NCBI GenBank assembly: GCA_023484515.1
Contig: JAMDAY010000010.1
Location: forward strand, 5,131-69,130
DNA: 64,000 nucleotides
Direction: 5' to 3'
DNA from: Patescibacteria group bacterium
GTDB lineage: Bacteria > Patescibacteriota > Doudnabacteria > UBA920
Both the position numbers and the translations under genes were made by a program. Shown here one piece after another: positions 9,405 through 54,477 of this stretch (its first letter is position 1; each line of letters opens with the position of its first letter). The notes under the pieces were generated by a model that was given only the letters and a program-made list of their open reading frames with translations, was not told where the DNA came from and did no database searches.

Positions 9405-9433
9405 TTGACAAAAAACAGCAATTATACTATAAT
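9405..9433 (+). promoter_or_regulatory. consensus sigma70-type promoter: TTGACA, 17-nt spacer, TATAAT
   Basis: The -35 is at 9405-9410 and the -10 at 9428-9433, with a spacer of exactly 17 nt. The next ORF on this strand starts at 10081. Confidence 0.6.
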
Positions 9434-10080
9434 GCTGTTAATATGAAAACTTTTATTTGGGATATTCCCAATAAGGGTATTAAAACAAACCATAACAAAG
9501 AAAGTCAGGAAATGCCCGTAAATTGCTAAAACAGGCTTCAGTAAGCACGAAATTTCGGGAATTTCCTGGCTTTTTGCGTATCTTTTCGCTTAAAAGCCGG
9601 TAAAAGCAGGGAAGGTTGTAACAAGTTTTATAACCTTTCGTCTGCTTTGCACACAACTCTAGAAGCTTGAAACTAAACTGTAGAAATTATAATTCAGCAT
9701 TGGGGATAACCTGATTAATGGATTTAATCTTTAGCAGAAGGTTTTAGGCCTGTGTTGTGTTTTGGCTCTTTTATTGAACTTAATGCTTAGGCCAGCCAAC
9801 TGGGTACAAGCAGCGCTTCGTTTGTGTATTTTAACCTTGTTGGGGAATTTACATAACAGGAAGCAAATTCTTAGTACTGCCCGGTCGATCTTTTGGCGTA
9901 ATAGTCTGGCGTTAAGGTTTCAATAATCATTTCCGCTCCTTGGATGTTTCGGCGATCTCTAGAGCGCCGGAAAGGAAAACTTGGGGAAATGTCCCAGCCT
10001 TGAGTTGGGAAAACTTTAATTAACATTTTCCAAATTGATTGTCTCAATTGAATAATCAATTTTTGGAAAAGGAGTAAAAA

Positions 10081-13000
10081 ATGCAAAATTCTGTAGCAAA
10101 GAAACTCTTTGCTGTAGGTGTTGCGGCTTCCACCGTCCTTTTGGGCTTGGCTCCTTTCGCTGCCAGCGCTGCTGCGCACGCCGAAGGCACCAACGTCAAA
10201 AAGTCTGACGGTACCGTCGGTATGATCATCGGCGGACAGTTCCGCCCCTACACTTCTGCGGGCGCTTTCCTCTCCTACGGCTTCAATTCTTGGGCCGGCG
10301 TAGTGGACGCCAATGCAGACGACTTGGCTTTGCCGACCGGAGCGTTCATTCCTCCGCAAGACGGCAAAATCATCTGCTCTGACCGGGGAACTGACAAAGG
10401 CACCTGCTATTTAATTTCAGGCGCCCAAAAAGCCGGCTTTACCTCTGCGGCCGTTTTCACCGGCCTCGGCTTTAGCTTCTCCAGAGCGCAATATGGCGAT
10501 GTTTCCTGGATGCCCAGCACCAGCAACATTGACAACACCACCGCCTCCCACTTGCCCGGCGTGTTGGTAAACAACAGCGGCACCGTCCAATTGGTCGGTT
10601 CCAACGGATTGCTCGGCATTCCGGACATAGCCACCTTTAACGGTTGGGGCTATTCCTTTGCCGACGTTGTCCCGGCTAATTCCGCTGACAAGGCTATGAC
10701 CCAGACCGGCGTTATGGCTTCTCGCGTAGCCGGCCAACTCTCTCCGACCGCTTTGGCCAATGTGCCCAGCGTAGTTTCCGGTTCCGTCAGCGCCTCCCTG
10801 GCTTCTGACACCCCGGCTGCGGGTTCGTTAGCCGTAAGCTCTACCGCCAGCGTCAACACCGTGGCTACGCTTGCCAAATTCAACTTTTCCGGCAGCGGCA
10901 CCGTTACCCAGTTGCAGGTAAAGAGGATCGGCATTTCTGCCGATACCGATTTGTCAAACGTTTATCTGTTTGACGGTAGTACCCGCTTGACTGACGCGGC
11001 TTCCGTAGGTGCTAACAGCCTGGTAACCTTCAGCAACCCGAACGGCTTGTTTACGGTTTCCGGCAACAAGACCATCTCCGTGGTTGCTGAACTTAAAAAT
11101 AACGCTTCCGCAGGCATTACTGTAGGCGTTCAGTTGACTTCTTTCACTGTGGCCAATGGCACTCCGGCGACAGTTGCCGTTTCCGGCAATTTATTTAGCG
11201 TCACTAACGTCGGCACGGACCTGGCTTATGGCGACTTCGGTTCGGTTACTCCAACCGGCGGCAGCTATGACCCGGCCAAAGATGTGGAAGTGTTCCGCAG
11301 CAACCTGACCGTAAATACGCGCAATATGACTCTTTCCGGTCTTATTTTGCGCCAGATCGGTTCCGCCAACAACTCGGATATTAACAATTTCCGCTTGCGC
11401 ATTGACGGCACCCAGGTTGCCCAGGTCCAAAGCGTGGACAGCAATGGTTATGTTAATTTTTCCTTCGCTCCGGTGACGCTGCAAAGTGGCACCCGCGTAG
11501 TCAGCGTATTGGCTGACGTGGTTGGCGGTTCTTCCAGAACTTTCCAGTTCCAGATCCGCAACAAGGCTGATGTGGTCTTAACCGATTCCAACTATGGTAC
11601 CCAGGTGTCCACCAATGATACCTACCCTGTAGGATCGGCCGCTGCTAATGACATTAATGCCGGCAGCTTGACTATCCAAAAGGCCACCGATTCTCCTTCG
11701 GCTGATGTTACTGCCAATAGCAACGACGTAACTTTGGCCAAATACACCCTGACCGCTTATGGCGAACCCATGAAGGTTGAAACCTTGACTGTTGCCGCTA
11801 CTTCCAGCGACGTGTCCGTTACCTCTTTGCGCAACGGCCGCGTATTGGTTAACGGCGCGCAATACGGTTCCACCGCCACTTTGGCCAGGTGTACCACTTG
11901 TGCAGACAACGATGCCGGCGGTACTGCTTATACTTTGAACTATACGGTCAACCCGGGTACCCCCGTAATCGTGGAAGTTCATGCCGACTTGTATGACAAC
12001 GACGGCGCGAACAACCTGGGCAACGGCGACACAGTGACTGCCTACATTTTGGAAGGCTCTTCCAACGTGCAAAAGACCGTATCTTTGGGCTATGGCAGTT
12101 ACCCGACCAACACTGTAGTGGCCGGTAATTCGCTATCTGTTGTAACTGGCAGCATGACGCTATCTTCCAATAGCAACTATGCCAACCAGAAAATCTCTCT
12201 GCCGCAGACCAGCTATAAGTTAGGTTCTTTTAACTTGGTTGGCAGCAGTTCCGAAGATATCAACATCAGCAGTATTGGTTTGGCCATGGTTGCCTCTACT
12301 ACTTTGACGAGCTTAAATGATGTTCAGATAAAAGTTAATGGCAACATGTTTGGCACCATTAAATCTACAGTCGCTGCGGGAACCGGGCCTAATGAAACCA
12401 TTGGCGCCACTTCCACCTTCTCCGGCAACTACACTTTGCCGAAATTGACGACTGTTCCGGTAGAAGTTTACGGTACAATAAACACCCCGACCTCGGGTTA
12501 TACCAACGACCACTTCCAGGTTCGTTTGTCTGTTGACGGTACCACGGCCAGTTCCGCCACCACGGCCGAGAGCAGTAATAATGGGCAGACCATTAGCATA
12601 GGCTCGGCTTCCATTGTGGCGGCTAAAGACGCGTCTTCTCCGGTTGCTTCGTTAGTAGCAGGCAACCAGACCAAGACCGCCGCAGCCTTTAAGTTTACCA
12701 CCACTGATGATGCGTATACCGTCAAGGAAATTACGTTTACTCCGACCAACGTGACCACTATTACCAGCGTAATCTTAAAGGACGGCAACACTGTTCTTGG
12801 CACCCAGCCGGGCGGCACCGCTACCGTGACTTTCAGCGGCTTGAACATTTCCATTCCGGCCAACTCCTCCAAGGTTTTGACCGTGGACTTGCAGCTTGGC
12901 GCCGTAGGCTATGGCCAAGGCACATCTGGCGACAACGTCCAAATCCAGCTGACCTCCTACAAGAACGTCCCGTCTTCCACGGGTGTGCAGGCCACCAACA

Positions 13001-13587
13001 CGACTGACGTTCCTTCTGGCAACGCCATGTATGTAGTTAAGGCCGTTCCGACCATCACTCCGGTTACTTTGCCGACCGGCTTGTTAGGAGCTTCCGGCCA
13101 AGTCTATACCATCGCCAAGTTCCAGGTTAGCACTGGTGGTACTGGCACTATTGCCTTTACCCACCTGGTGTTTAAGTATAGCACCACGACTGGCGTGGAC
13201 ATTACCACTCCGAAGCTGTATGATGCCAATAGCGTAGAAGTTACCTCCAGCTCCAGCGTAGACAAGGTTAACAGCAGGATTGTTGTTGATCTGGCTGCGG
13301 AAAAGGAAGTTACTGACGGCACCTTCTCCTTGAAGGCTACGCTATCCGATGCTTCCGGTTTCACTACCGGTGACTCGGTTAGCACCTACATGGATGTGGC
13401 AACTAGCTCAGTGACAAAGTCTGCTGACGCGGGAACCGCAACCTCTACAATTGCTAACGCTTTTGTGTGGTCTGATGAGTCCGGCACGGCTGGCACCAGC
13501 GCGACCCACAGCCTGACTTCGGATGACTGGTTTGGCGACTACCTGATCAAGAATCTGCCGACAGACTCGCAGAACTTGGTTAAGTAA
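10081..13587 (+). CDS. large secreted cell-surface (S-layer-like) protein, 1168 aa, Thr/Ser/Gly/Val/Asn-rich
   Basis: AAGGAG RBS lies 8 nt upstream. The N-terminus is a signal peptide, MQNSVAKKLFAVGVAASTVLLGLAPFAASAAAHA. The composition is low-complexity and beta-rich. The gene is GC/C-wobble rich relative to its neighbours, the pattern expected for a highly expressed gene, and is followed by a strong terminator. Confidence 0.85.
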   Translation: MQNSVAKKLFAVGVAASTVLLGLAPFAASAAAHAEGTNVKKSDGTVGMIIGGQFRPYTSAGAFLSYGFNSWAGVVDANADDLALPTGAFIPPQDGKIICSDRGTDKGTCYLISGAQKAGFTSAAVFTGLGFSFSRAQYGDVSWMPSTSNIDNTTASHLPGVLVNNSGTVQLVGSNGLLGIPDIATFNGWGYSFADVVPANSADKAMTQTGVMASRVAGQLSPTALANVPSVVSGSVSASLASDTPAAGSLAVSSTASVNTVATLAKFNFSGSGTVTQLQVKRIGISADTDLSNVYLFDGSTRLTDAASVGANSLVTFSNPNGLFTVSGNKTISVVAELKNNASAGITVGVQLTSFTVANGTPATVAVSGNLFSVTNVGTDLAYGDFGSVTPTGGSYDPAKDVEVFRSNLTVNTRNMTLSGLILRQIGSANNSDINNFRLRIDGTQVAQVQSVDSNGYVNFSFAPVTLQSGTRVVSVLADVVGGSSRTFQFQIRNKADVVLTDSNYGTQVSTNDTYPVGSAAANDINAGSLTIQKATDSPSADVTANSNDVTLAKYTLTAYGEPMKVETLTVAATSSDVSVTSLRNGRVLVNGAQYGSTATLARCTTCADNDAGGTAYTLNYTVNPGTPVIVEVHADLYDNDGANNLGNGDTVTAYILEGSSNVQKTVSLGYGSYPTNTVVAGNSLSVVTGSMTLSSNSNYANQKISLPQTSYKLGSFNLVGSSSEDINISSIGLAMVASTTLTSLNDVQIKVNGNMFGTIKSTVAAGTGPNETIGATSTFSGNYTLPKLTTVPVEVYGTINTPTSGYTNDHFQVRLSVDGTTASSATTAESSNNGQTISIGSASIVAAKDASSPVASLVAGNQTKTAAAFKFTTTDDAYTVKEITFTPTNVTTITSVILKDGNTVLGTQPGGTATVTFSGLNISIPANSSKVLTVDLQLGAVGYGQGTSGDNVQIQLTSYKNVPSSTGVQATNTTDVPSGNAMYVVKAVPTITPVTLPTGLLGASGQVYTIAKFQVSTGGTGTIAFTHLVFKYSTTTGVDITTPKLYDANSVEVTSSSSVDKVNSRIVVDLAAEKEVTDGTFSLKATLSDASGFTTGDSVSTYMDVATSSVTKSADAGTATSTIANAFVWSDESGTAGTSATHSLTSDDWFGDYLIKNLPTDSQNLVK

Positions 13588-13641: not shown

Positions 13642-13677
13642 CCCCGCCCTTTGCAAGCAAAGGGCGGGGCTTTGTTA
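13642..13677 (+). terminator. rho-independent terminator (CCCCGCCCTTT-GCAAGC-AAAGGGCGGGG followed by CTTTGTT)
   Basis: Read directly, 55 nt after the stop of the large surface-protein gene. Confidence 0.75.
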
Positions 13678-13905: not shown

Positions 13906-14601
13906 ATGCGTAAAAAAATTATCATAATAATAACCATAATAATCGCCATGGCGGCAGCGGCCGGCGGATACTGGTATTTCCAAAAAAACCGGCACAATAG
14001 CAAGGCGCCGGGCGCGAAATCTTTGGCCGACATCCAAAGGAATTTGACTGTTGAACAGGAAAAAGCGGTAAACGGCCGGATTCAAAAAGCCGAAGATTAC
14101 TTAAAAACCTTAAAACCGGAACAGAAAAATTACAATTACGAACAGGCCAATACTTACGAATACCTTGGCCAGCAATATTACGCGCTGGGACAGATGCAAA
14201 AATCCAAGGACATGTATGAGAAAGCGTTGGCCTTGGAGCCTGACGACGAATCAATGCAGGTTGGACTGGCCACTACTTTAACCGAAGCGGGGGACAAGGC
14301 CGGAGCGAGGCAGTTTTTGGAAAAGGCGCTGCAAAGCAATCCCAAGGATTCCGACTTGTGGCTGCGCTATATAGATTTGCGGCAGACTATGGGCGCCACG
14401 GCGCAGGACCTTGGCGATTTGTACAGCCAGGCTTTGGAAAAAACGAATAATTATATAGATGTTTTAACCAAAGACGCCGCCTTCCAGGAGCAACAGGGGA
14501 ATACTGCCGCGGCTATTTCTTTGTGGCAGCAAGCGTCCAAACAGCAGCCGGACAACCAGGCATATAAGGAAGAAATTGGCAGGCTGCAGAAACTGCAATA
14601 G
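13906..14601 (+). CDS. membrane-anchored TPR-repeat protein
   Basis: N-terminal hydrophobic helix KKIIIIITIIIAMAAAAGGYWYF, followed by tetratricopeptide-like repeats (YEYLGQQYYALGQMQKSKDMYEKALALEPDD...). Confidence 0.75.
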   Translation: MRKKIIIIITIIIAMAAAAGGYWYFQKNRHNSKAPGAKSLADIQRNLTVEQEKAVNGRIQKAEDYLKTLKPEQKNYNYEQANTYEYLGQQYYALGQMQKSKDMYEKALALEPDDESMQVGLATTLTEAGDKAGARQFLEKALQSNPKDSDLWLRYIDLRQTMGATAQDLGDLYSQALEKTNNYIDVLTKDAAFQEQQGNTAAAISLWQQASKQQPDNQAYKEEIGRLQKLQ

Positions 14602-14953: not shown

Positions 14954-15238
14954 ATGGAATTAGAAGAAGTAAAAAGAAGAATTACCCCTATTTTAAACCG
15001 TTATGGCGTCAAGCGGGCGGCTGTTTTTGGCAGTGTCGCCAGGGGAGAGGCGGGCAGGGATAGCGATGTGGATTTGCTTATTGAACTTGACGAGCCGCTC
15101 GGTTTGTTCAAACTGGCCCAGCTAAACTATGTGCTGGAGGACGTTTTGCAGAAAAAAGTTGATTTAGTGAAAACCGAAAATATTAAACCATCTTTTAAGG
15201 ATAATATTTTAAAGGATGCGGTTTACATTTATGGCTAA
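14954..15238 (+). CDS. mntA: nucleotidyltransferase-domain antitoxin (MNT, type VII TA)
   Basis: GSVARGEAGRDSDVDLLIE is the Pol-beta-superfamily NTase motif (GS...D.D). Confidence 0.85.
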   Translation: MELEEVKRRITPILNRYGVKRAAVFGSVARGEAGRDSDVDLLIELDEPLGLFKLAQLNYVLEDVLQKKVDLVKTENIKPSFKDNILKDAVYIYG

Positions 15239-15572
15239 CGCAGAAACCGCCTACTTGCAGGACATTTTAGACAATATTGGAATTTTGGAGAAATTTTTAA
15301 GCGGCGTTGGGAAAGACGCGTTTTTTTCCGATTTGGAAAAACAGTTTGCGGCGGCCCGCGCTTTGGAGATTATCGGGGAAGCTTCCGCAAAACTTTCGGA
15401 AGATTTTCGGACAAAGCATCCGGAAATAGATTGGCGCGGATTAAAGTCTATGAGGAACTTGCTGATTCATGAATATGCATACGTTGATGCGGGAGAAGTC
15501 TGGAAAGCGGGCCAAAATGATGTCCCGGATTTAAAAGCGAAAATAAAAACCATCCTCGCACAAGCATTGTAG
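15231..15572 (+). CDS. hepT: HepT-like (DUF86/HEPN) toxin
   Basis: RNLLIHEYAYVD matches the R-X4-HXY HEPN motif. There is an 8-nt ATGGCTAA overlap with the MNT stop. Confidence 0.85.
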   Translation: MANAETAYLQDILDNIGILEKFLSGVGKDAFFSDLEKQFAAARALEIIGEASAKLSEDFRTKHPEIDWRGLKSMRNLLIHEYAYVDAGEVWKAGQNDVPDLKAKIKTILAQAL

Positions 15573-15676: not shown

Positions 15677-17902
15677 ATGAAAACCAAGCCAGTTCTTTAT
15701 ATTTTCTTTATTTTAATCTGCTTTAGTTTGCTCACTCCGTTTGTCGTGGACAAAAATTACCTTTTTCCCTTTATTTTGCCCCGCGCCCTGTTTTTGCGCA
15801 TAGTCCTGGACATTGCCCTGCCCTTTTATTTATACCTCATATTAGCCAAAAAGGAATACCGCCCAAATTTAAAAAATCCGTTAAACCTTTCAGTTCTGGT
15901 TTTTTTGGGAGTTTACTTTATTACTTCCTTTACCGGCGTAGACGCGTTGCGCAGCGTGTGGGGCAACATTGAACGCATGGGCGGGGCGTGGTATATGATG
16001 CATCTGGTAATGCTGTATTTTTACGTGCTGCTTTTAGCCCAGGCCAGCGGCAGGCTGCTGCTGCGGTTTTTAAAAATTTTCCTGTGGGTGGCCAATGTTA
16101 CCGTATTTTACGGGTTGTGGGTATACTTGGGCCTGCCGGGTTTTTACGCGGACCCTTCGCTGCCTTCCCGCGTGTCTTCCAGTTTCGGCAATCCCATCTT
16201 TTTTGCCAGTTTCCTGGTGCTGCCGCTGTTTCTGTCCGTGTTTTTCGCCATCCAGGAAGAATCCAGGGCCTGGAAGGCAATATACGGGGTAATGGCGTTA
16301 TTGCAACTGTTCGGCATTTACCAGAGCGCCACGCGCGGCGCGTTTGTGGGCCTGGCGGCCGGCATATTTTTGGCGGCCGTGATGTTTTTGTTCAAGGCGG
16401 AATCGCGGCGCCTGCGCAATTGGGGAGTTGCCGCGGTCGGAGGCATAGTCCTGGTAGCCGGCGCGCTGTTCCTGTTCGGCGGCAAGCTGCCGTCCGGTTC
16501 GTTTTTATACCGCATTACCCATTTAAAGGACAGCAATTCCGAAGCCCGCCTGATCCAGTGGAAGACCGCCCTTCAAGGATACAAAGACAAGCCTGTTTTG
16601 GGCGTGGGCCCGGAAAATTACTATATCATCGCCAACAAATATTACAATCCCGAACTGAACAAGTACGATCCTTCCTGGTTTGACAAGCCGCATAACTATC
16701 TTTTGGAAATTTTAGTGACCACCGGCGCGGTAGGATTTGCCGCCTATCTGGCCATGCTGGCGTTTTTTGCCTGGAGCCTGTATAAGGCCTTTAAGGCCGG
16801 GTTGCTTTCGTGGCTGGAAACCTGCGTGCTTTTAGCCGGCATGCTGGCTTACCAGATCCAGAACTTGTTCGTGTTTGATACCATTTCCGCTTCCGTGGCC
16901 TTTTTCATTTATATGGGTTTTGGCGCGTATTTGTGGCATGAGTCGGAATTGGAAAAAAAACCGGCCCACAAAAAAATTATGTCCGGCCTTAGCCCCGCTT
17001 TCGTGAACGCGGCCGCAGGCGTGTCTGCGGTTGCCGTAATTTATGCCATTTACTTGACAAGTATTGTGCCGGGCCGGGTGGCAAAGAACATTAATTACGG
17101 CTACGCTTATTCCGGCATAGACCCGGTAAAGGCGGAACAATATTTTGAAGCCGCGCGCAACCAGCCGTTCGTGTTTGATCCGGGAGAATTGGGAGTGCGC
17201 TATGCGGACTTTGCCGCTAACGTGGCCCAAAACCCGCCGCAGGGGTTGTCCAAGGAAGAGATTGGCAAGATTACCGACCATGCCATAGCTTCTTTGGAGG
17301 ACGCAAATGCGCGCGTGCCCAATTATCCCATCTTTTGGTATAAATTGGCCCAGGCTTACAATACCAAAAGCCTGCTGGACAACGGGCCCGTGGACCCAAG
17401 GGCCGACCAGGCCGCGGCCAGGGCCGTGGAACTGGCACCCAAGCGGCCGGAAACCATAAGCTACCTTATCCAGGTAAAGGCCGCAGAGGGACAGACGGAT
17501 AAAGCAGTGTCATTGTCGGAGCAGTTGGCCCAATTGTACCCGTGGAATTCCGATTACGCCTGGCGCCTGGCAGTGGTGTACGATTTTGCCAAGCAGGACG
17601 AAAAAGCGGTTGCAACTGCGCAACAGGCGCTGGCCGCAGGCTACCAAATAAAGCAAACCAGTGACATCCAGTGGCTGGTAAAATATTATTCCGATAATAA
17701 AAATTATGCCGCTGCAATCGCATTATACCAGGCAGGGTTAAAAAATGACCCGACCAATGTCCAGCTTTTGAGCGGTTTGGCCCTGGCTTATGCCGACTCG
17801 GGCGACAAACAAAAGGCCATAGAGACCGCCAGGCAAATTGTTGTAATCCAGCCGGCGGCCAAGGACGACGTGGACAAATTCATCCAGGGCTTAAGCCAGT
17901 AA
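15677..17902 (+). CDS. Wzy_C (O-antigen ligase / PglL-WsaB-like oligosaccharyltransferase family) polytopic membrane protein with a C-terminal TPR domain
   Basis: Multiple TM helices. IYQSATRGAFVGLAAG and ARLIQWKTALQGYKDKPVLGVGPENY match Wzy_C signatures. The C-terminal roughly 250 aa carry TPR-like repeats. Confidence 0.8.
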   Translation: MKTKPVLYIFFILICFSLLTPFVVDKNYLFPFILPRALFLRIVLDIALPFYLYLILAKKEYRPNLKNPLNLSVLVFLGVYFITSFTGVDALRSVWGNIERMGGAWYMMHLVMLYFYVLLLAQASGRLLLRFLKIFLWVANVTVFYGLWVYLGLPGFYADPSLPSRVSSSFGNPIFFASFLVLPLFLSVFFAIQEESRAWKAIYGVMALLQLFGIYQSATRGAFVGLAAGIFLAAVMFLFKAESRRLRNWGVAAVGGIVLVAGALFLFGGKLPSGSFLYRITHLKDSNSEARLIQWKTALQGYKDKPVLGVGPENYYIIANKYYNPELNKYDPSWFDKPHNYLLEILVTTGAVGFAAYLAMLAFFAWSLYKAFKAGLLSWLETCVLLAGMLAYQIQNLFVFDTISASVAFFIYMGFGAYLWHESELEKKPAHKKIMSGLSPAFVNAAAGVSAVAVIYAIYLTSIVPGRVAKNINYGYAYSGIDPVKAEQYFEAARNQPFVFDPGELGVRYADFAANVAQNPPQGLSKEEIGKITDHAIASLEDANARVPNYPIFWYKLAQAYNTKSLLDNGPVDPRADQAAARAVELAPKRPETISYLIQVKAAEGQTDKAVSLSEQLAQLYPWNSDYAWRLAVVYDFAKQDEKAVATAQQALAAGYQIKQTSDIQWLVKYYSDNKNYAAAIALYQAGLKNDPTNVQLLSGLALAYADSGDKQKAIETARQIVVIQPAAKDDVDKFIQGLSQ

Positions 17903-20693: not shown

Positions 20694-21692
<999 letters not shown>

Positions 21693-21694
21693 GC

Positions 21695-22483: not shown

Positions 22484-22504
22484 GATGAGCAATTTTTAAT
22501 TAAA

Positions 22505-26665: not shown

Positions 26666-26796
26666 CAGGTTGTAATAGGGGTTTAATTGTTAATTTTTAT
26701 CCATTTTTTAGTTTTAAGTCCTTAAATTTAATGTTTCCCTTTTTTATTTTACTGGGAATCGTCAGTTTAAGGTTTCAAGTATTAACAAAAATTAAT

Positions 26797-34754: not shown

Positions 34755-34760
34755 AAAACC

Positions 34761-36951: not shown

Positions 36952-36954
36952 AAT

Positions 36955-38940: not shown

Positions 38941-38951
38941 GAAGTGATCTT

Positions 38952-39653: not shown

Positions 39654-39668
39654 CGAAACGGAGTCATA

Positions 39669-40691: not shown

Positions 40692-40701
40692 CCAGTTTTA
40701 T

Positions 40702-43179: not shown

Positions 43180-43180
43180 A

Positions 43181-45096: not shown

Positions 45097-45098
45097 AA

Positions 45099-46260: not shown

Positions 46261-46263
46261 ACC

Positions 46264-47361: not shown

Positions 47362-48166
47362 AATTACGGTGGTGACCGCCAGCTTTAATTCGCAAGATTA
47401 CATTCGGCGGGCCATAGACAGCGTGCAGAGCCAGGCTTACCCCAACGTAGAGCATATAATAATGGACGGCGGGTCAACGGACGGCACTTTGGAAATTTTA
47501 AAGTCGTATGGCAATAAGATCAAGTGGTTTTCCGGGCCGGACCGGGGCATTTACGATGCGCTAAACAAAGGCTTTAAACAGGCGGCGGGCAGCGTTTTTA
47601 CCTGGCTTGACAGCGACAATTTTTATCTTTCGGAAAATGTCCTGTCAGCCGTTGCCCGGGCCTTTTCGCAGGACTCAAATTTAGATCTCGTGGTCACGAA
47701 CGGGAAAGTGGTTTATCCTGACCTTGATTTGGAGGAAAAAGTCAGGCCCAAAATTCCCGGTTATTTGGAATTGCTAAACCGCGGCAACCGGTTTATGCCG
47801 GAATGCATGTTTTATAAAAAGGAGCTTTATTTCCGCTCCGGCGGCTTAAACTTAAACTTGCGCCTGCTTTCCGATTACGAACTTTGGTTAAAGTTCTTCA
47901 GGCTCCGCCCTAAGGTCCAAAAGTTGGAAATGGAAAGCGCCGCCTATGTTGTGAGGCCGGACGCGCTGCTCCGCAAATCTCCGGTTCGGGCATGGCGGGA
48001 AACCTTTATAATTGGTAAAATGTATAAGCGGAGTCCGGCAGTAAGGCTTAAATTCAGGTTTGCTTTCCTTTGGGCCTTAGCCAGGTTTTATTTGGGAAGA
48101 GCGGTTAAAAAAAATTCGGTTTTAACGGGCATTTATAAAAGATACCGCAACTGGCGGCATAATTAA
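47345..48166 (+). CDS. glycosyltransferase family 2
   Basis: ITVVTASFNSQDYIRRAIDSVQSQAY...IIMDGGSTDGT. Confidence 0.8.
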   Translation: MDQLPKITVVTASFNSQDYIRRAIDSVQSQAYPNVEHIIMDGGSTDGTLEILKSYGNKIKWFSGPDRGIYDALNKGFKQAAGSVFTWLDSDNFYLSENVLSAVARAFSQDSNLDLVVTNGKVVYPDLDLEEKVRPKIPGYLELLNRGNRFMPECMFYKKELYFRSGGLNLNLRLLSDYELWLKFFRLRPKVQKLEMESAAYVVRPDALLRKSPVRAWRETFIIGKMYKRSPAVRLKFRFAFLWALARFYLGRAVKKNSVLTGIYKRYRNWRHN

Positions 48167-48198
48167 CTTTATTTACAGACGGAAAGGATGCAAAAAAC

Positions 48199-49044
48199 AT
48201 GGAAACTAAAAAAATAGGAATTATGGGTTTGGGTTTTGTGGGAGGGGCGTTAATGCGATACTTCAAAACCCGGCCGGTATCGCTTTTTTTGTATGATAAA
48301 TATAAAAAGATAGGGTCTGTGGAAGAGGTAAATAAGGCTGATATAGTTTTTATTTGCGTGCCCACCCCTTTTTTAGATGGAAAAGGTTTTGACTTGTCAG
48401 CGGTGAAAGACGCCATTGGCGAACTGCAGGGCGCGAAAATTGTGGTTATCAAGTCCACCATTCTCCCGGGCACCACTGAAAATTTGCAAAAAACTTTCCC
48501 AAGGCACAAATTTTTATTCAATCCCGAATTTTTGCGCGAGGTTTCGCCTTATGAAGACCTTATACGGCCCGACCGGCAGATTTTAGGGAGCACCAAAGAA
48601 AGCCAGGCTGCGGCAAAGGAAGTTATGGGACTTTTGCCCAAAGCCCCGTTTGAAAAAATTATGCCCGCCACCGAAGCGGAAACGGTCAAATACATGGCAA
48701 ACTCCTTTTTGGCGCTAAAAGTGGTTTTTGCGAACGAGTTTTACGATATCTGCAAAGAAATAGGAATTGATTACGCGCTGGTCAAAGAGGCCGTAGTCAA
48801 AGACCCGCGCATTGGGGATTCGCATTTTGACGTAGGCCACGGCGGCTACCGCGGTTACGGCGGCTCCTGCTTCCCTAAAGACGTAAATGCAATTTTGCAA
48901 CTGGCCGAAGACAAAAAGGTCAGGGTGTCCTTGCTGAATGCCATGAGGAAGGCCAACAAGGAGCTGTTGGAAGAAAGCGGGCTTAACGAGGACTTTTTCC
49001 TGCAGGAATTGCATAAGAAAAAAAAGGAGGAGCAAAGGGCATGA
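48199..49044 (+). CDS. UDP-glucose/GDP-mannose dehydrogenase-family protein, short form (NAD-binding and central domains only)
   Basis: IGIMGLGFVGG Rossmann motif and the catalytic-Cys motif GGSCFPKD. The protein ends about 100 aa before the usual UDP-binding domain. Confidence 0.6.
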   Translation: METKKIGIMGLGFVGGALMRYFKTRPVSLFLYDKYKKIGSVEEVNKADIVFICVPTPFLDGKGFDLSAVKDAIGELQGAKIVVIKSTILPGTTENLQKTFPRHKFLFNPEFLREVSPYEDLIRPDRQILGSTKESQAAAKEVMGLLPKAPFEKIMPATEAETVKYMANSFLALKVVFANEFYDICKEIGIDYALVKEAVVKDPRIGDSHFDVGHGGYRGYGGSCFPKDVNAILQLAEDKKVRVSLLNAMRKANKELLEESGLNEDFFLQELHKKKKEEQRA

Positions 49045-49973
49045 AGAAAAAGAATATCCTCGTAGCCGGCGGGGCGGGATTTGTAGGTTCAAACCTCTGC
49101 GAATTTTTAGTGGAAAAAGGGCATAGGGTGGTCTGCCTGGACAATCTGTCCACCGGAAGAATGCAAAACATAAAAAATCTGCGCCTGAAGAAAAATTTTG
49201 AATTCATGCGCCATGATATTACAAAACCCCGCAACTTTCCGGCAGACGAAATTTACCATTTGGCTTCCCCGGCTTCGCCCGTGCATTACCAAAAAGATCC
49301 CGTTGGCACGTGGAAAGCCAATACATTGGGGACTTTAAACCTTTTAGAACTGGCCCGGAAACAAAAAACCAAATTTTTATTTGCCTCAACTTCGGAAGTT
49401 TACGGCGACCCAAAGGTGCATCCCCAGGGCGAAAAATACCGGGGCAACGTGAATCCCGTCGGTATCCGCAGCTGCTACGACGAAAGCAAGCGCGCGGGGG
49501 AGTCGCTATGCGCCGACTATTACAGGCTGTATAAATTTCCCGTAAAAATTGTCCGCATTTTCAATACTTACGGCCCCAATATGGAAATAAACGACGGCCG
49601 CGTGGTTTCAAATTTTATAGTGCAGGCGCTAAAAAATGAGCCTATTACCGTATACGGGCAAGGCCGGCAAACCCGGAGCTTCCAGTATATTGACGACTTA
49701 ATCCAGGGCCTGGTAAAAATGATGGAAGGCAGCTTTTTAGGGCCGGTCAATTTGGGCAATCCAGGAGAATTTACAATTTTACATCTGGCAAAGCTGGCAA
49801 CACAACTGACAGGCTCCAAATCCCGGATAATTTACCAGCCTTTGCCCGCAGACGACCCGAAACGCAGAAGGCCTGATATTTCGCTTGCGGAAAAAAAATT
49901 AAACTGGCGTCCGAAAGTGGAGCTTAAGGCGGGGCTTTTAAGGACAATTGAATATTTCCAAAGTATCCTATGA
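49041..49973 (+). CDS. uxs: UDP-glucuronate decarboxylase (UDP-xylose synthase)
   Basis: ILVAGGAGFVGSNL...IYHLASPASPVHYQKDPV...FASTSEVYGDP...YDESKRAGE. Confidence 0.9.
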   Translation: MKKKNILVAGGAGFVGSNLCEFLVEKGHRVVCLDNLSTGRMQNIKNLRLKKNFEFMRHDITKPRNFPADEIYHLASPASPVHYQKDPVGTWKANTLGTLNLLELARKQKTKFLFASTSEVYGDPKVHPQGEKYRGNVNPVGIRSCYDESKRAGESLCADYYRLYKFPVKIVRIFNTYGPNMEINDGRVVSNFIVQALKNEPITVYGQGRQTRSFQYIDDLIQGLVKMMEGSFLGPVNLGNPGEFTILHLAKLATQLTGSKSRIIYQPLPADDPKRRRPDISLAEKKLNWRPKVELKAGLLRTIEYFQSIL

Positions 49974-50881
49974 GCGAGCCGTTATCCATTTATACTGAAA
50001 ATTTATTTTTAAGCAACAAAATAAAAAGCAAGGTTAAAAAACTTGCCGGCCTTTATTTGCGGGGGCCGCAGGCCGTGGAGCAAAACCTGTTTTCCGGTTT
50101 AAAGGAGCTTGGGGCAAGCTTTGAAGTAAACCGGCCTTTAAAGGAAGGTATTGATACGGCGTTTGTTTTAAGCGGCGTTAAAACTTTGCAATGGGCAATA
50201 AATAAACAAAACCTAGGGCTGGTCAGGCGCATTGTTGCAGGCCCTAATATTGCGGTTTCGCCTAACAGCAGTGGCGGCATACTCAAAGACCAAGCCGTGG
50301 ACCAAATAGTCGTCCCCAGCGAATGGGTAAGGGAATTTTACATTAAGGAAGCCCCAACAATAAGTTCCAAGATTAAGGTTTGGGCTGCCGGAGTTGCCTT
50401 GCCGGATTTAAAACCAGAGCCGAAAATTTTTGACTTTCTCATTTACAACAAAATAGGCAAAAACCCCTTGGCAGAAAATATTTGCCAATATGTGAACGGT
50501 AAAGGTTACTCCAGCAATGTGCTGACTTACGGCAAGTTCGCGCGGCAAAATTATTTCCAAATGCTGCAACAGGCCAGGTATGCCATATACCTTTCCGATT
50601 CCGAAAGCCAGGGTTTGGCCTTATTTGAAGCTTGGGCTTTTAATGTGCCGGTTTTTGCGTGGGACAAAGGCTATTTTGAATACGCGGGCAAAAGGTTCCC
50701 CGCCAAAGTCGGAGTCCCGTATCTGAGCGAAAAAACAGGGATAGCCTTTAAGGATTTTCCGGAGTTTGAAAAAAAATTGGATAGTTTTTTAAAGGCGGAA
50801 TTTGCCCCGAGGGAGTGGATAAAAAGTAACGCCGGATTGAAAATGGCGGCGGAAAAATTTTTAAACTTGCAGGATGCTTAA
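49970..50881 (+). CDS. hypothetical protein (possible glycosyltransferase)
   Basis: ORF in operon context. Confidence 0.45.
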   Translation: MSEPLSIYTENLFLSNKIKSKVKKLAGLYLRGPQAVEQNLFSGLKELGASFEVNRPLKEGIDTAFVLSGVKTLQWAINKQNLGLVRRIVAGPNIAVSPNSSGGILKDQAVDQIVVPSEWVREFYIKEAPTISSKIKVWAAGVALPDLKPEPKIFDFLIYNKIGKNPLAENICQYVNGKGYSSNVLTYGKFARQNYFQMLQQARYAIYLSDSESQGLALFEAWAFNVPVFAWDKGYFEYAGKRFPAKVGVPYLSEKTGIAFKDFPEFEKKLDSFLKAEFAPREWIKSNAGLKMAAEKFLNLQDA

Positions 50882-51620
50882 GAAAATCTTAAAAAAAATT
50901 TTAAGGAAAACCGGAAAGCTCGTAAGCGGGATATTTTGGTATCCCCGCGACCTTTTCCAATATCTGCGGCTGGGCCGCAAATGCGGCGCCTTGCAAAACC
51001 AAAATTTTAAAATTTTTCCCCAGGTTTTTGACAAAGGTCCGGGCTCGCATACTTTTGACAAGCATTACGTGTACATGGACAGGTGGGCGTTTAAGCACCT
51101 TTTGGAAAGCCGCCCGCCCGAACACGTGGACATAGGCTCGTCAATCAGGTTTTTGTCCATGGCTAGCACGATAACCAAAGTAAAGTTTTTGGACATCCGC
51201 CCTTTAAGGCTGGATTTTGAAAATTTTGAATGCGTGGAGGGCAGCCTCTTGGATCTTCCGTTCGCGGACAATTCCGTCAGTTCCGTATCTTGCCTGCATG
51301 TTGCCGAGCATGTGGGCTTGGGCAGGTACGGCGACCCGCTGGATCCGCAAGGAAGCGAGAAAGCGTGCCAAGAACTAAAGCGCGTGCTTTCAGCCGGGGG
51401 TGCGCTTTACTTTGCCGTGCCTGTGGGGCGGCAAGCCATTTATTTCAATGCGCATCGCGTGTTTGACCCGCATGCCGTGCTAAACTATTTTTCCGGTTTA
51501 AAGCTTGAAGAGTTTTCCGCAGTCAATGACAGCGGGCATTTTGTAAAAAACGCGGATATGCGGGATTTTTCCCAGGCGAAATATTCCTGCGGCCTGTTTA
51601 AGTTCACTAAGAACCCCTAA
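50874..51620 (+). CDS. SAM-dependent methyltransferase-like protein (DUF268-type)
   Basis: LDLPFADNSVSSVSCLHVAEHVGLGRYGD...LKRVLSAGGALYFAVP. Confidence 0.55.
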   Translation: MLKKILKKILRKTGKLVSGIFWYPRDLFQYLRLGRKCGALQNQNFKIFPQVFDKGPGSHTFDKHYVYMDRWAFKHLLESRPPEHVDIGSSIRFLSMASTITKVKFLDIRPLRLDFENFECVEGSLLDLPFADNSVSSVSCLHVAEHVGLGRYGDPLDPQGSEKACQELKRVLSAGGALYFAVPVGRQAIYFNAHRVFDPHAVLNYFSGLKLEEFSAVNDSGHFVKNADMRDFSQAKYSCGLFKFTKNP

Positions 51621-51625
51621 CATTT

Positions 51626-52159
51626 ATGAAGATAACAAAAACCCGAATACCCGAAGTTTTGCTTATAGAAACGCCCAAGTTTAAGGACGAGCGGGGGTAT
51701 TTTATGGAAATTTCTAAGGATTCGGACGCGAAGGATTTGGGCGTCCGTTTTGTGCAGGATAATTTATCCTGTTCCAAACAAGGGGTTTTAAGGGGCCTAC
51801 ATTATCAATTGCCGCCTTTTGCCCAGGGCAAGCTGGTGAGGGTGTTAAAGGGCGCGGTCTGGGACGTGGCCGTTGACATTAGGAAGTCTTCGCCAACTTT
51901 CGGCAAGTGGGCGGGGGCGGAACTGAGCGAGGAGAACAACCTGGCTCTCTACTTGCCCGAAGGGTTTGCGCACGGCTTTGTAGTCTTGTCCAAGGAAGCC
52001 TTGGTATTGTACAAGGCGACAAACGAATACCATCCCGAAAGCGAAAGGGGAATAAGGTGGAACGACCCCGCATTGTCCATAAACTGGCCTGTTAAAAATA
52101 TTTTTACATCCGACAAAGACAGCGCCCTTCCCTTATTAAAGGACGCGCAAGCCGTTTAA
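51626..52159 (+). CDS. rfbC: dTDP-4-dehydrorhamnose 3,5-epimerase
   Basis: FKDERGYFMEI...RGLHYQ...GKLVRVLKGAVWDVAVDIR...YLPEGFAHGF. Confidence 0.9.
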   Translation: MKITKTRIPEVLLIETPKFKDERGYFMEISKDSDAKDLGVRFVQDNLSCSKQGVLRGLHYQLPPFAQGKLVRVLKGAVWDVAVDIRKSSPTFGKWAGAELSEENNLALYLPEGFAHGFVVLSKEALVLYKATNEYHPESERGIRWNDPALSINWPVKNIFTSDKDSALPLLKDAQAV

Positions 52160-52175
52160 AGTAAATATTTATTTT

Positions 52176-52338
52176 GAGGTGGTCTAAAAACTCCATTTGG
52201 GCTGCAATTGCAAAATTTCGGCCATTTGGGCCAAAAAATTTCTCCGCTTAGCCTACGGCTAAACATCAAAATTTATTTGCCCCAACTGCCTCGAAATTTT
52301 GCAATTTCGCCTACAAAGCGAGTTTTTAGACCACCTCC
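52176..52338. repeat. 163-nt imperfect palindrome with perfect 18-bp outer arms GAGGTGGTCTAAAAACTC / GAGTTTTTAGACCACCTC and nested inner inverted repeats (GCAATTGCAAAATTTCG...)
   Basis: Read directly; it occupies the whole rfbC-GT2 intergenic space. Confidence 0.65.
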
Positions 52339-52358
52339 TTAATATTTAAGTAAATTTT

Positions 52359-53099
52359 ATGCCTTTAGTTTCCGTAAATATCCTGACTAAAAATCGCGCT
52401 GGGCTGCTAAGGCGCGCGTTGCTGTCCGTGGCAGCGCAAAGTTTTAAGGATTTTGAGGTAGTGGTCGTCAACGACGGGTCGTCCGATGAAACTCAAGAGG
52501 TAATTGAAAGATTGAAAATTGAAAATTTAAAGATTATAACGCATCAGGAATCAAAAGGGATTACAGCCGGCAGGCAGGAAGCTTTGCAGGCGAGCGCGGG
52601 GAAATATATAGCTGTTCTGGATGATGACGACGAATGGATAGATGCGGATAAATTGAAAAAACAGGTGGGATATTTAAATGAGCACCGCGATTGCGTACTA
52701 TTAGGCGGTGGAATCCAAATTTCCAATATCCAATTTCCAATATCCAAAACAAGGCCGGAGACGGATGGGGAAATAAGGCGGGCGATGCTGTTAAAAAATC
52801 CGTTTTTTACTTCCACGGTAATGTTCCGGCGGGAAGCGGCCTTAAAGGCGGGCGGGTTTGTAAAAGACAGCGACGATCTTGCCGAAGACTACGACTTATG
52901 GCTAAGGCTGGGCCTGCTTGGGGGAATGCATAATTTCCAGGAGCCATTTGTGCGCTATAGCCGGTCAAGCTATAATAAAGGCAGGTTTCGCGCATTTTTA
53001 GCCAAGCAATTGCGGTTAATTTCGCGGCATAAGCGGAATTATCCCAAATATTTTTTGGCAAAGCTAATTTTAAAAGCAAGGCTGGTTTTGGGAGCGTAG
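52359..53099 (+). CDS. glycosyltransferase family 2
   Basis: VSVNILTKNRAGLLRRALLSVAAQSF...VVVNDGSSDET...VLDDDDEW. Confidence 0.8.
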   Translation: MPLVSVNILTKNRAGLLRRALLSVAAQSFKDFEVVVVNDGSSDETQEVIERLKIENLKIITHQESKGITAGRQEALQASAGKYIAVLDDDDEWIDADKLKKQVGYLNEHRDCVLLGGGIQISNIQFPISKTRPETDGEIRRAMLLKNPFFTSTVMFRREAALKAGGFVKDSDDLAEDYDLWLRLGLLGGMHNFQEPFVRYSRSSYNKGRFRAFLAKQLRLISRHKRNYPKYFLAKLILKARLVLGA

Positions 53100-53172
53100 G
53101 CGTAGGGCAGCTCATGACTGGGACGGATTGAAGATTAAAAATTGAAGATTGAAGATTTAAAAAAGCAATATT

Positions 53173-54477
53173 ATGCTTAACAACAAATTAGTAAATTTTT
53201 GGCTGCTTACGGTCCCGGACCTGGCATTGTTTTATGCGGGGTTATGGATGGCCATTCTGCTGCGCTACGGCGGGGGGTTAAAAGGCGTGGACGCGACCGC
53301 GCATTTTAAGGCCTTTACCGTGCTGTTCGCTTTTTGGCTGGTGGTATTCTTTATCCACGGGCTTTTGGACATCCGTTCCCTAAAGCGCTATACCGGCATA
53401 GTCTTCGGCTTGCTTTCCGCAACCGTAACCAACCTGGTCATTGCCATTGTTTATTTTTATTTCCAGCCGGACCTGATTTTAACGCCCAGGCGCTTTTTAC
53501 TTTTGGATTTAACCATAACTTTCGTCTTAATCCTGGCCTGGCATCTGCTGTTAAAATTCAACCTGAAGCGCCTGGCCACGGAAGACGTATATTTGTTTTC
53601 CTTTAACAACGAATTGGCAGAATTGGAACGGGAAATTAAAAAGCATGGCTACCTGGGTTTTAAGGTGCTGGGGCATTTATGCGAACAGGATTTAAGGCAG
53701 CCGGCGCTGGCAATAAACAGCGCCATTATATTGCCGGACAATTTGCAGGCCAAGCCGGAAGTGCTTGCCAAATTTTACGAATGGCGGAAGTCCGGGGTGG
53801 ATTTTTTTAACCATCGCGAATTTTACGAAAACCTGCTGCGGCGCGTGTATATTTCCGACTTAAGCGAGCTGTGGTTCTTGGAAAACATCAGTTATAAGGA
53901 AAAGCGCTTTTACAACCTGCTCAAGCGGGCCATAGATTTAATTTTCGGCGTTTTAGGGCTGGCTGCGTTTTTGTTAAGCTGGCCGTTTTGCTCCCTGCTG
54001 ATTAAGCTGACTTCCCCGGGCCCGGTTTTGTTCATCCAGGAGCGGGTAGGCAGGGGGGGTAAAATTTTCAAGGTTTACAAATACCGCACCATGAGCGGCG
54101 GCCCGACCAATACCTGGACTTCGGTCAACGACCCGCGCATCACCAAAGTGGGCAAATTTTTGCGCAAGAGCCGCATAGACGAATGGCCGCAGTTCTTAAA
54201 CCTGCTGGCCGGCAACTTAAGCCTGGTCGGCCCGCGGCCGGAACAACCGCACATTGTGGAAGAATTAAAAAGGCAAATCCCGTTTTACGACGAGCGGCAT
54301 TTGGTCAAACCCGGCCTGACCGGCTGGGCGCAGCTAAACGTTTATGCCGGTTCCCTGGAAGAGACCAAAGCCAAACTGCAATACGACCTGTATTACATTA
54401 AGCACCGCAGCCTGGCTTTTGACCTGGAGATTATTTTGAAGACTTTGTATTACATCTTTACCTGGCAGGGGAGGTAA
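53173..54477 (+). CDS. undecaprenyl-phosphate sugar phosphotransferase (WbaP/WsaP-like initiating enzyme)
   Basis: N-terminal TM region. C-terminal KRAIDLIFG...SPGPVLFIQERVGRGGKIFKVYKYRTM...PQFLNLLAGNLSLVGPRP is the bacterial sugar-transferase domain. Confidence 0.9.
   Translation: MLNNKLVNFWLLTVPDLALFYAGLWMAILLRYGGGLKGVDATAHFKAFTVLFAFWLVVFFIHGLLDIRSLKRYTGIVFGLLSATVTNLVIAIVYFYFQPDLILTPRRFLLLDLTITFVLILAWHLLLKFNLKRLATEDVYLFSFNNELAELEREIKKHGYLGFKVLGHLCEQDLRQPALAINSAIILPDNLQAKPEVLAKFYEWRKSGVDFFNHREFYENLLRRVYISDLSELWFLENISYKEKRFYNLLKRAIDLIFGVLGLAAFLLSWPFCSLLIKLTSPGPVLFIQERVGRGGKIFKVYKYRTMSGGPTNTWTSVNDPRITKVGKFLRKSRIDEWPQFLNLLAGNLSLVGPRPEQPHIVEELKRQIPFYDERHLVKPGLTGWAQLNVYAGSLEETKAKLQYDLYYIKHRSLAFDLEIILKTLYYIFTWQGR

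Follow-up and report, generated by a model that had tools for sequence, protein, structure and literature searches.

We analyzed a 64,000-nucleotide stretch of DNA (the window) from a Patescibacteria group bacterium (GenBank assembly GCA_023484515.1, contig JAMDAY010000010.1, positions 5,131 to 69,130), in which the gene for a secreted, Ser/Thr-rich protein lies close to the gene for a Wzy_C-family membrane enzyme and upstream of a large glycan locus. A first-pass annotation of this DNA had proposed that these genes form a surface-protein O-glycosylation system. An open reading frame (ORF) listing in six frames, together with Pfam and NCBIfam scans of about 60 genes across the 64 kb, reproduced its gene map, with every element that it had named in place. 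The genes of interest are those of a secreted surface-layer-like protein of 1168 aa (10081-13587, + strand), a membrane-anchored tetratricopeptide repeat (TPR) protein of 231 aa (13906-14601, +; TPR_14, TPR_19 and TPR_2, with an N-terminal hydrophobic helix), a 741-aa candidate ligase or O-oligosaccharyltransferase of the Wzy_C family (15677-17902, +) and, divergent and directly after it, a GT4 glycosyltransferase (18226-19347, -), followed by a co-directional glycan locus of 34 kb (19671-54477) that ends in an initiating transferase of the Bac_transf family. The annotation had guessed that the DNA came from a small-genome uncultivated lineage. This was right, as a metagenome-assembled genome named 'Patescibacteria group bacterium' encodes proteins with 100% identity to the 1168-aa and 741-aa proteins, and the named relatives are mostly Candidatus Doudnabacteria. 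The sequencing samples SRR10252151 and SRR10267473 contain an identical locus.

The 1168-aa protein starts with a signal peptide (residues 1-34, MQNSVAKKLFAVGVAASTVLLGLAPFAASAAAHA), which ends in AHA, an AXA-type cleavage site. The signal peptide is followed by a triple repeat (35-232), about seven beta-sandwich domains (233-1108) and a C-terminal tail. Thr (12.9%), Ser (12.0%) and Gly (9.6%) are abundant, Ser and Thr together making up 25% of the protein, and the mature form is net acidic (80 acidic versus 57 basic residues) with 4 Cys. An AlphaFold2 (AF2) model built on 30 homologs had a mean predicted local distance difference test (pLDDT) score of 82 and consisted of the triple repeat, then the beta-sandwich array and a short tail. 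The protein had no match in Pfam, in NCBIfam or among PDB sequences, including a search of the PDB with a family profile. A word-seeded search returned 561 homologs at E<=1e-3, nearly all of 1130-1230 aa and every one with a named source from the candidate phyla radiation (CPR); a scan of one genome per species gave 150 loci. Conservation of residues ~232-1168 reaches far outside Doudnabacteria, to Nomura-, Yanofsky-, Jackson- and Wildermuthbacteria and to Paceibacterota. A comparison of the model with the PDB using Foldseek gave only generic Ig-like arrays (PrgB, mastigoneme, complement and integrins) and was uninformative on S-layer identity. The modelled fold fits a surface array or an adhesin without deciding between them.

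Codon use sets this gene apart. At its third codon positions, C (0.42) and T (0.28) prevail over G (0.20) and A (0.10), unlike in the other 23 genes examined, in which C and G are about equally frequent at this position, and the codons GGG, GGA, NCG and ATA are avoided. A gene expressed at a very high level would be expected to show such a pattern, and the bias toward codons ending in C or T explains a local reversal of the GC skew. The gene is monocistronic and closed by a strong intrinsic terminator (13642-13669, +), with a 12-bp stem containing 9 G-C pairs and a T-rich tail. The description in the first-pass annotation of a highly expressed-looking secreted Ser/Thr/Gly-rich protein, with a GC-skewed wobble position, a strong terminator and an AAGGAG ribosome-binding site (7 nt before the ATG), was therefore accurate.

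The triple repeat of the 1168-aa protein (10183-10776, +) is a putative cell-wall anchor module. In the AF2 model, residues 36-230 form three repeats of ~60 aa, each with two strands and a helix (beta-beta-alpha). We searched residues 35-232 against 1.84 billion cluster representatives using HMMER and obtained 1026 matching representatives at E<=1e-3, 277 of them at E<=1e-30. Among the best 150 of the 1026, identity to the query was 42-84%, the proteins spanned 177-2584 aa, and the module was located either directly after the signal peptide (~residues 30-230) or at the extreme C-terminus, for example at residues 257-444 of a protein of 445 aa and at 2397-2582 of one of 2584 aa. Fusion partners of the module include a subtilase with TIG, fn3 arrays and He_PIG. 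The module itself matched nothing in Pfam, NCBIfam or the PDB, and Pfam and NCBIfam detected neither SLH or CWB2 nor another known anchor domain in the 1168-aa protein. An SLH domain is present in a homolog (P0119, residues 92-130), in the equivalent N-terminal region in which another homolog (P0103) has PG_binding_1 (residues 73-110). As a triple repeat that is common to unrelated exported proteins and can be swapped with wall-binding domains, the module behaves like an SLH or CWB2 anchor. Like the module, the SLH and CWB2 anchors of Firmicutes S-layer proteins consist of three tandem repeats of ~60 aa, are carried N- or C-terminally by many exported proteins that are otherwise unrelated, the main surface protein among them, and are interchangeable with other anchors among homologs; they differ in sequence, as searches found no match between the module and SLH or CWB2. 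The module is a candidate for a CPR-wide cell-wall anchor family absent from Pfam. Its behaviour is the strongest new argument for wall anchoring of the 1168-aa protein, and we consider it likely that this protein is the major wall-anchored protein of the cell surface.

An intergenic stretch of 1 kb precedes the 1168-aa ORF and contains conserved regulatory signals. A sigma-70-type promoter that matches the consensus at 12 of 12 positions (TTGACA-17-TATAAT; 9405-9433, +) was the sole site with at most one mismatch when we scanned the 64 kb for promoters. Of 36 relatives, 24 have a perfect copy at 470-840 nt before the start codon of the homologous gene, and most of the others have an 11/12 copy. 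As the promoter has been kept among relatives whose proteins are only 40-65% identical, it is real and under selection. In nearly all relatives, it is followed by an A-tract, a near-perfect hairpin of ~30 bp and a U-tract, located about 60-90 nt past the predicted transcription start; in the window (9497-9575, +) the distance is about 60 nt. A simple pattern found this arrangement in 15 of 34 leaders, with folds of about -26 to -34 kcal/mol, and a more general fold scan showed that all 34 have, in their first ~320 nt, a strong hairpin that runs into a stretch of T. The stems vary in sequence yet remain paired, with compensatory changes, and the RNA of 9440-9585 has a z-score of -4.9. The unit of promoter and hairpin, which is kept upstream of the homologous gene in ~33 of 34 relatives, looks like a small RNA gene of ~135 nt or a transcription attenuator within a long leader. 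Rfam searches (the window at the gathering threshold and 9244-10090 at E<=5) returned only tRNAs and matches at chance level. A leaderless 28-codon ORF ~10 nt after the -10 box was considered as a leader peptide for attenuation and rejected, being unconserved and missing in ~40% of the relatives. Additional conserved islands lie beyond the hairpin, and in the alignment of the 34 leaders the last ~65 nt before the ATG (10018-10080, +) are nearly invariant. This block contains an inverted repeat, ATTGATT-N13-AATCAAT, a weak promoter-like site (9/12; 10027-10056) and the AAGGAG (10069-10074). Because the inverted repeat shows no covariation, a plain helix seems less likely than an operator bound by a protein or an RNA site recognised by its sequence.

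We next turn to the 741-aa enzyme, for which the first-pass annotation had correctly noted a fusion of Wzy_C with TPR repeats. Wzy_C (PF04932) matched residues 206-358 with 83.8 bits (cut-off 31.7), and TPR repeats occupy the C-terminal part. NCBIfam models gave weak similarity only (IctB 40.9 bits, TuaE 26.4 bits). The AF2 model, built on 31 homologs, was of high quality (pLDDT 91.5, predicted TM-score 0.88) and has 12 transmembrane (TM) helices with a large loop (267-340) between TM9 and TM10, followed by a Lys-rich disordered linker (425-440), a long 13th helix (440-477) and a TPR superhelix (483-739). The only membrane protein among the 50 best Foldseek matches in the PDB was the O-antigen ligase WaaL (7tpg_B), with a TM-score of 0.66 when normalised on WaaL and an alignment of 456 columns at 18% identity. 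In its TPR part, the enzyme is similar to the superhelices with which OGT and SPY bind their substrates. A phmmer search of the PDB with the same protein reached TPR proteins only, and WaaL was found by fold comparison alone. R220, R291 and H339 are invariant in the 31 homologs and align with R215 (in TQTR), R288 (in GAR) and H338 (in HLH) of WaaL from Escherichia coli K-12. These three WaaL residues are functionally important and are conserved in PglL as R224, R298 and H349 (Schulz et al., PMC3643930). Lys and Arg residues of the enzyme cluster in the predicted cytoplasmic loops, as the positive-inside rule demands. Since a 13th helix follows the linker rich in KK, the TPR domain is predicted on the same outer side as the catalytic loop, and the ~260-aa domain should therefore be located outside the cell. 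The enzyme probably transfers a glycan en bloc from undecaprenyl pyrophosphate (Und-PP) on the outer side of the membrane.

We then asked whether the genes for the surface protein and the Wzy_C-TPR enzyme are linked in relatives, and analyzed 80 loci centred on surface-protein homologs (numbered with the prefix L) using tblastn and a hidden Markov model of the membrane domain. Where the surface protein was at least 48% identical, 16 of 17 loci had a Wzy_C-TPR gene, or two of them, on the same strand at a distance of 0.02-5 kb downstream. The linkage extends to seven Doudnabacteria loci that are more distant (L027, L039, L045, L048, L063, L066 and L080), and in L073 and L075 (35% identity) a divergent Wzy_C+TPR gene lies on the opposite strand directly after the surface-protein gene. 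Conversely, all three Wzy_C-TPR homologs that were picked regardless of context lie 0.9-2.9 kb downstream of a surface-protein homolog. Linkage holds in one Doudnabacteria clade and in two divergent loci. The divergent GT4 gene has the identical place and strand in many of the relatives (L004, L007, L008, L012, L014, L015, L017-L019, L045, L048, L083, L084 and L086). Of the gene order proposed in the first-pass annotation (surface protein, Wzy_C-TPR, Wzm/Wzt, WbaP), the first pair is thus kept in nearly all of the closest loci, while glycan genes and export route differ from locus to locus: a Wzx-type flippase takes the place of Wzm/Wzt in L084, and the glycan locus of L083 contains GT11 and other methyltransferases. 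The Wzy_C-TPR enzyme is 42-46% identical across loci with differing glycan genes. A ligase or oligosaccharyltransferase, and not a repeat-unit polymerase, would be expected to stay constant and moderately conserved next to a glycan island that varies.

Many relatives (L003-L018, L048, L080 and L083) have two tandem Wzy_C-TPR paralogs, and the window has one. A poorly resolved neighbour-joining tree separated the copies roughly into two old paralog groups, proximal and distal, and placed the single copy of the window loosely with the proximal ones. In many lineages, some of them lacking Wzy_C, the surface-protein gene is followed by one for a TPR protein of ~220-260 aa. The CPR-wide core hence consists of the surface protein and a small TPR protein, often with a pilus operon nearby, and in one clade a glycan island with the ligase is inserted between this core and the pilus operon. 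A minimal version of the island, with GT2, GT4 and an initiating transferase, is present in L020, where the initiating transferase again adjoins PilB.

In the window, the glycan locus starts with Gmd, an Fcl-like GDP-6-deoxyhexose reductase/epimerase, an EEP-family protein and a Glyco_trans_1_2 protein (19671-23587, +). Gmd exceeded its NCBIfam cut-off (538 versus 415 bits) and the Fcl-like protein stayed below the equivalog cut-off (266 versus 500), which qualifies the GDP-fucose assignment of the first-pass annotation. The Wzm permease (24109-24927, +) and the Wzt ATPase (25394-26665, +), the latter with the glycan-binding Wzt_C domain, were identified as had been described. They are followed by a nonulosonic-acid block (26731-36195, +) encoding a PAPS-reductase-like protein, a PseB-like protein, PseC, a cytidylyltransferase, two NeuB/PseI paralogs, a methyltransferase, a WbuX/PseA-type amidotransferase and, after the latter, a HisH/HisF-like pair. 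The combination of such an amidotransferase with HisH/HisF-like proteins is known from acetamidino-sugar synthesis. PseC (533 versus 424) and PseI (475 versus 340) passed their equivalog cut-offs and the amidotransferase its subfamily cut-off (353 versus 203), with PseB close to its own. These matches agree with the amidino-nonulosonic acid that had been proposed and assign it specifically to the pseudaminic-acid type.

The variable part of the island (36202-53099, +) encodes a 661-aa protein of unknown function, at least five methyltransferases, transferases of the GT47-like, GT8-like, GT2 and Glyco_trans_1_2 types, FdtA with a DegT aminotransferase, two fragments resembling NDP-sugar dehydrogenases, a short-chain dehydrogenase/reductase (SDR) and RmlC. 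With at least six methyltransferases in the whole glycan locus, their abundance had been described correctly, and FdtA with the DegT-type aminotransferase indicates dTDP-3-amino-3,6-dideoxyhexose, again as suggested before; RmlA and RmlB were not found in the window. The earlier claim of UDP-xylose fared badly, as the product of the gene at 49041 matched only generic SDR dehydratases and UDP-glucose dehydrogenase is represented by the two short fragments. These ORFs, similar to UDP-Glc/GDP-Man dehydrogenases (44335-45096, 253 aa, and 48199-49044, 281 aa), each cover part of the family architecture and may be fragments or pseudogenes; a similar ORF of 258 aa is present in L084. The last gene (53173-54477, +) encodes a polyprenyl-phosphate hexose-1-phosphate transferase of the WbaP/WsaP/WcaJ type (Bac_transf 197.6 bits; TIGR03025 310.9 bits versus a cut-off of 295.6), in line with the WbaP-like initiator annotated previously. 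In its central part (~26000-46000), the island has a lower GC content (0.40-0.46) and third-position GC (~0.47-0.49) than both flanks, where third-position GC is 0.56-0.67. This low GC, along with the variability of the island, suggests that the Pse and methyltransferase block was acquired or exchanged by recombination or transfer. A PD-(D/E)XK_3 nuclease-family gene (24947-25354, +) lies between wzm and wzt, and a small ORF resembling an excisionase with a helix-turn-helix (HTH) lies just upstream of wzm (~23770-24010), with an HTH_17 gene at a comparable place in L084. The nuclease and HTH genes hint at traffic of mobile elements in the island.

The composition of the locus resembles the S-layer glycosylation (slg) cluster of Geobacillus stearothermophilus NRS 2004/3a, which encodes the S-layer protein SgsE, the 168-aa TPR protein WsaA directly upstream of the Wzy_C transferase WsaB, WsaC-F, Wzm/Wzt and WsaP (PMC2943079). 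All of these kinds of parts, an S-layer-like gene, a TPR protein, a Wzy_C transferase, Wzm/Wzt and a Bac_transf initiator, occur here in one locus. In both, the surface-protein gene adjoins the cluster, the small TPR protein is encoded just before the transferase, export takes the ABC-transporter route, for which Wzt of G. stearothermophilus is thought to recognise a methylated chain end, methyltransferase activity is encoded, and a Bac_transf-type initiator stands at the cluster end. The likeness to slg clusters is closer than the first-pass annotation had stated, as the window has both a separate TPR protein, the counterpart of WsaA, and a TPR fusion, for which WsfB of Paenibacillus alvei is a precedent. 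There are also differences. The surface protein lacks an SLH domain and any detectable homology to SgsE and would be held by the Pfam-less anchor; the transferase itself bears a TPR domain of 260 aa; the glycan, poly-rhamnose in G. stearothermophilus, would be far more complex (pseudaminic-acid type, 3-amino sugar, 6-deoxyhexose); and the organism is a CPR bacterium.

Among individual enzymes, WsfB is a predicted tyrosine O-oligosaccharyltransferase for the SpaA glycan that combines Wzy_C with a C-terminal TPR motif and is encoded in an slg cluster, although that glycan is assembled by another route; a C-terminal TPR motif is also found in PglL (PMC2943079). The PglL enzymes (Neisseria PglL and Acinetobacter PglL with ComP) share the Wzy_C superfamily and the Arg/Arg/His triad with the enzyme of the window; they differ in acting in diderm periplasms, mostly on pilins, and in having no TPR superhelix of this length. 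WaaL (7TPG from Cupriavidus metallidurans and the E. coli K-12 protein) shares the 12-TM core, the large external loop and the aligned triad. It lacks the 13th TM helix and the 260-aa TPR domain that is predicted to be external, and its sequence similarity to the enzyme is below significance. On present evidence, the locus would work like an slg cluster, and a glycosylated S-layer is predicted.

In our proposal, to which we give an even chance, the locus of this Doudnabacteria-like CPR bacterium specifies its main surface protein, of the S-layer type and anchored to the wall, and the machinery that covers the cell surface with a long, capped heteropolysaccharide. In the pathway that we envisage, the Bac_transf enzyme would prime undecaprenyl phosphate with hexose-1-phosphate, and the whole chain would be assembled on the cytoplasmic face by the conserved GT4, many further transferases, methyltransferases and enzymes of nucleotide-sugar synthesis, using GDP-6-deoxyhexose, dTDP-3-amino-3,6-dideoxyhexose and an amidino-modified pseudaminic acid. 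Wzm/Wzt would export the finished chain, with Wzt_C probably recognising a terminal cap, and the Wzy_C-TPR enzyme, by means of its external loop with R220, R291 and H339, would take the glycan en bloc off Und-PP and attach it to an acceptor outside the membrane. The likeliest acceptor would be the 1168-aa protein as it emerges from Sec, with the external TPR superhelix of the enzyme, and possibly also the separate 231-aa TPR protein, aiding its recruitment. The N-terminal triple-repeat module would hold the protein on the wall, where it might form a lattice. For the 1168-aa protein as the main acceptor of the enzyme we see the case as evenly balanced. There is a precedent in gene order, as O-oligosaccharyltransferase genes were adjacent to the gene of their target in 21 of 31 cases and adjacency has been used to predict such enzymes (Schulz et al., PMC3643930).

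Several results weigh against this proposal. The PglL_A model (PF15864), which separates PglL from WaaL, had no match in the enzyme at E<=0.01, and the enzyme is best filed in the Wzy_C ligase superfamily outside the PglL subfamily. An hhalign alignment to E. coli WaaL was colinear and on its own insignificant (E=0.39). Foldseek gave no known S-layer fold in the PDB for the model of the 1168-aa protein. The Ser/Thr richness of this protein is a trait of the whole family that does not follow the presence of Wzy_C (27.5% with a Wzy_C neighbour, 26.3% without), and we dropped it as a marker of glycosylation. One of the 17 closest loci (L011, 59% identity) has no Wzy_C gene, nor is one present in 32 more distant loci where at least 6 kb of sequence follows the surface-protein gene; these instead carry a ~230-aa TPR protein, PG_binding_1, HlyD/MacB-type transporters, PilB, PilC and pilins. 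In the closest clade, the genes for class I fructose-bisphosphate aldolase (FBA), the LOG-family protein and transaldolase (TAL) are syntenic along with that for the surface protein, and the linkage may therefore partly reflect shared ancestry and not function. Moreover, the conserved terminator-like hairpin intervenes between the perfect promoter and the 1168-aa gene and makes the assignment of the promoter uncertain; the consensus site named in the first-pass annotation exists, and that it drives this gene, 647 nt away, is doubtful.

A further difficulty leads to the chief rival, ligation of the glycan to a lipid or wall acceptor, which we judge less probable than the proposal. S-layer genes commonly adjoin the synthesis genes of their anchoring wall polymer, and this would give the same neighbourhood. 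Such clustering is touched on in a preprint (bioRxiv 10.1101/2025.04.02.646754). The product might accordingly be a wall- or membrane-linked polysaccharide, such as a secondary cell-wall polymer, a lipoglycan or a capsule-like polymer, that the Wzy_C-TPR enzyme ligates to a glycolipid or wall component. The surface protein would then be unglycosylated and the genes neighbours since both build the envelope, and the polymer might even be the ligand of the anchor module. The fold match to WaaL, a ligase with a lipid acceptor, is consistent with this explanation, as are the unmatched PglL_A model, the independence of Ser/Thr richness from Wzy_C and the weak similarity to TuaE and IctB, and a highly conserved anchor module must bind something on the wall. 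However, the glycan island is hypervariable in its genes and export route while the module is 42-84% identical among its best 150 representatives, and the anchor is therefore unlikely to bind that polymer. In the known cases, polymers are joined to peptidoglycan by LCP-family ligases and not by Wzy_C proteins, and no LCP gene was found among the scanned genes of the window. Surface-layer-type homologs with SLH or PG_binding_1 do exist, and the Wzy_C gene does not lie in a lipopolysaccharide (LPS) locus, as no lpx, waa or kds gene for lipid A or core was present among the ~60 genes. CPR bacteria are reported to lack LPS; if so, the acceptor cannot be lipid A-core. An extracytoplasmic TPR domain fused to or beside the transferase has been described for protein O-oligosaccharyltransferases, namely WsfB/WsaA and PglL (PMC2943079), which favours a protein acceptor.

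If the acceptor is a protein, the 1168-aa protein could be one of many, or a minor one. The enzyme would then be a general O-oligosaccharyltransferase for exported proteins such as type IV pilins and proteins with the anchor module, in keeping with the relaxed specificity of PglL-type enzymes in Neisseria, Burkholderia and Acinetobacter (PMC3643930). The island is located between the surface-protein gene and PilB/PilC/PilM, the pairing is kept even without intervening glycan genes, and the two old tandem paralogs of many relatives would fit two classes of acceptor. Yet no gene neighbours that of the enzyme as closely and as consistently as the surface-protein gene does, and the pilus operon that the first-pass annotation had regarded as a possible second target encodes PilB, PilC and PilM, with no pilin gene, N_methyl domain or prepilin motif anywhere in the window. 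We therefore consider a general enzyme unlikely. Least probable of all is a Wzy-type polymerase or IctB-like protein that is unrelated to the ABC-transporter glycan and owes its position to inherited synteny: the Wzy_C family of Pfam does include polymerases, the weak IctB and TuaE matches would fit, and FBA, LOG and TAL are equally syntenic in the clade, but a Wzm/Wzt pathway with no Wzx among the scanned genes of the window needs no polymerase, Wzy polymerases co-vary with their repeat unit while this enzyme is conserved across loci with different glycan genes, the invariant Arg/Arg/His triad is that of ligases and oligosaccharyltransferases, and the linkage recurs in opposite orientation in L073 and L075.

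The proposed coat glycosylation by the Wzy_C-TPR enzyme would represent a known class of system in a phylum without a characterised example. CPR bacteria (Patescibacteria) make up a large share of bacterial diversity, and most are episymbionts whose surface mediates host attachment and phage contact. S-layers and pili have been reported on them by cryo-electron microscopy, and to our knowledge their coat proteins and the modifications of these are uncharacterised. Our literature search returned no paper linking 'O-antigen ligase' with 'candidate phyla radiation' and nothing specific on surface glycosylation in CPR bacteria; S-layer proteins of the phylum came up only as a passing mention in computational work. 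Taken together, and tentatively, the 1168-aa family could be the S-layer protein of a large part of the CPR, the triple repeat could be its CPR-wide equivalent of SLH and CWB2 (with more than 1000 clusters), one Doudnabacteria clade could O-glycosylate the coat with the Wzy_C-TPR enzyme and a hypervariable island between the coat gene and the pilus operon, and the promoter-hairpin unit could govern expression as a small RNA or attenuator. If true, this would provide a concrete candidate for a coat protein family of the CPR, a candidate universal wall-anchor module with which to find the rest of the CPR surface proteome, and a candidate glycosylation enzyme that glyco-engineering systems in E. 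coli could put to the test. As the CPR counterpart of an O-antigen locus, the hypervariable island would then be likely to determine host and phage specificity. Beyond this system, two by-products may prove useful: the anchor module that Pfam lacks, and the promoter-hairpin unit that is conserved ahead of the coat gene.

Loci without the Wzy_C gene show other features. We looked among the 25 most frequent neighbour families of the 32 Wzy_C-less loci for an alternative glycosylation enzyme (GT-C or PMT) and found none. A HlyD-like membrane-fusion protein follows the pair of surface protein and TPR protein in L020 (14383-15912), L022 (14724-19497) and L084 (8341-9864), accompanied in L022 by MacB/FtsX-type permeases, and the HlyD-like protein could possibly belong to a dedicated export or assembly system in ligase-less lineages. 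Giant ORFs of 2200-2700 aa come immediately after the surface-protein gene and replace the Wzy_C genes in L011 (13657-21810), L031 (15308-21874) and L043 (15387-22394).

The remaining genes of the window lie on either side of the system or interrupt it. The left flank encodes MetK, transketolase, GlpX, class I FBA, the LOG-family protein and TAL, all on the + strand. On the other side of the glycan locus, PilB, PilC and PilM (54731-58883) are followed by two membrane proteins resembling PilN and PilO. A toxin-antitoxin pair of the MNT/HepT type (14954-15572, +; NTP_transf_2 for MNT, and HepT-like) separates the TPR gene from the Wzy_C gene. It is missing at this place in most relatives and is an insertion that is no part of the glycosylation system; a HepT-like match also occurs within the glycan locus of L012. 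Between a tRNA-Pro gene (9170-9243, -) and the consensus promoter lies a near-perfect inverted repeat (9259-9360) with arms of ~20 bp, GAGGGCCGTCCTCTGGGAT and ATCCCAGAGGACGGCTCTC, which drew spurious matches to miRNA precursors in Rfam.

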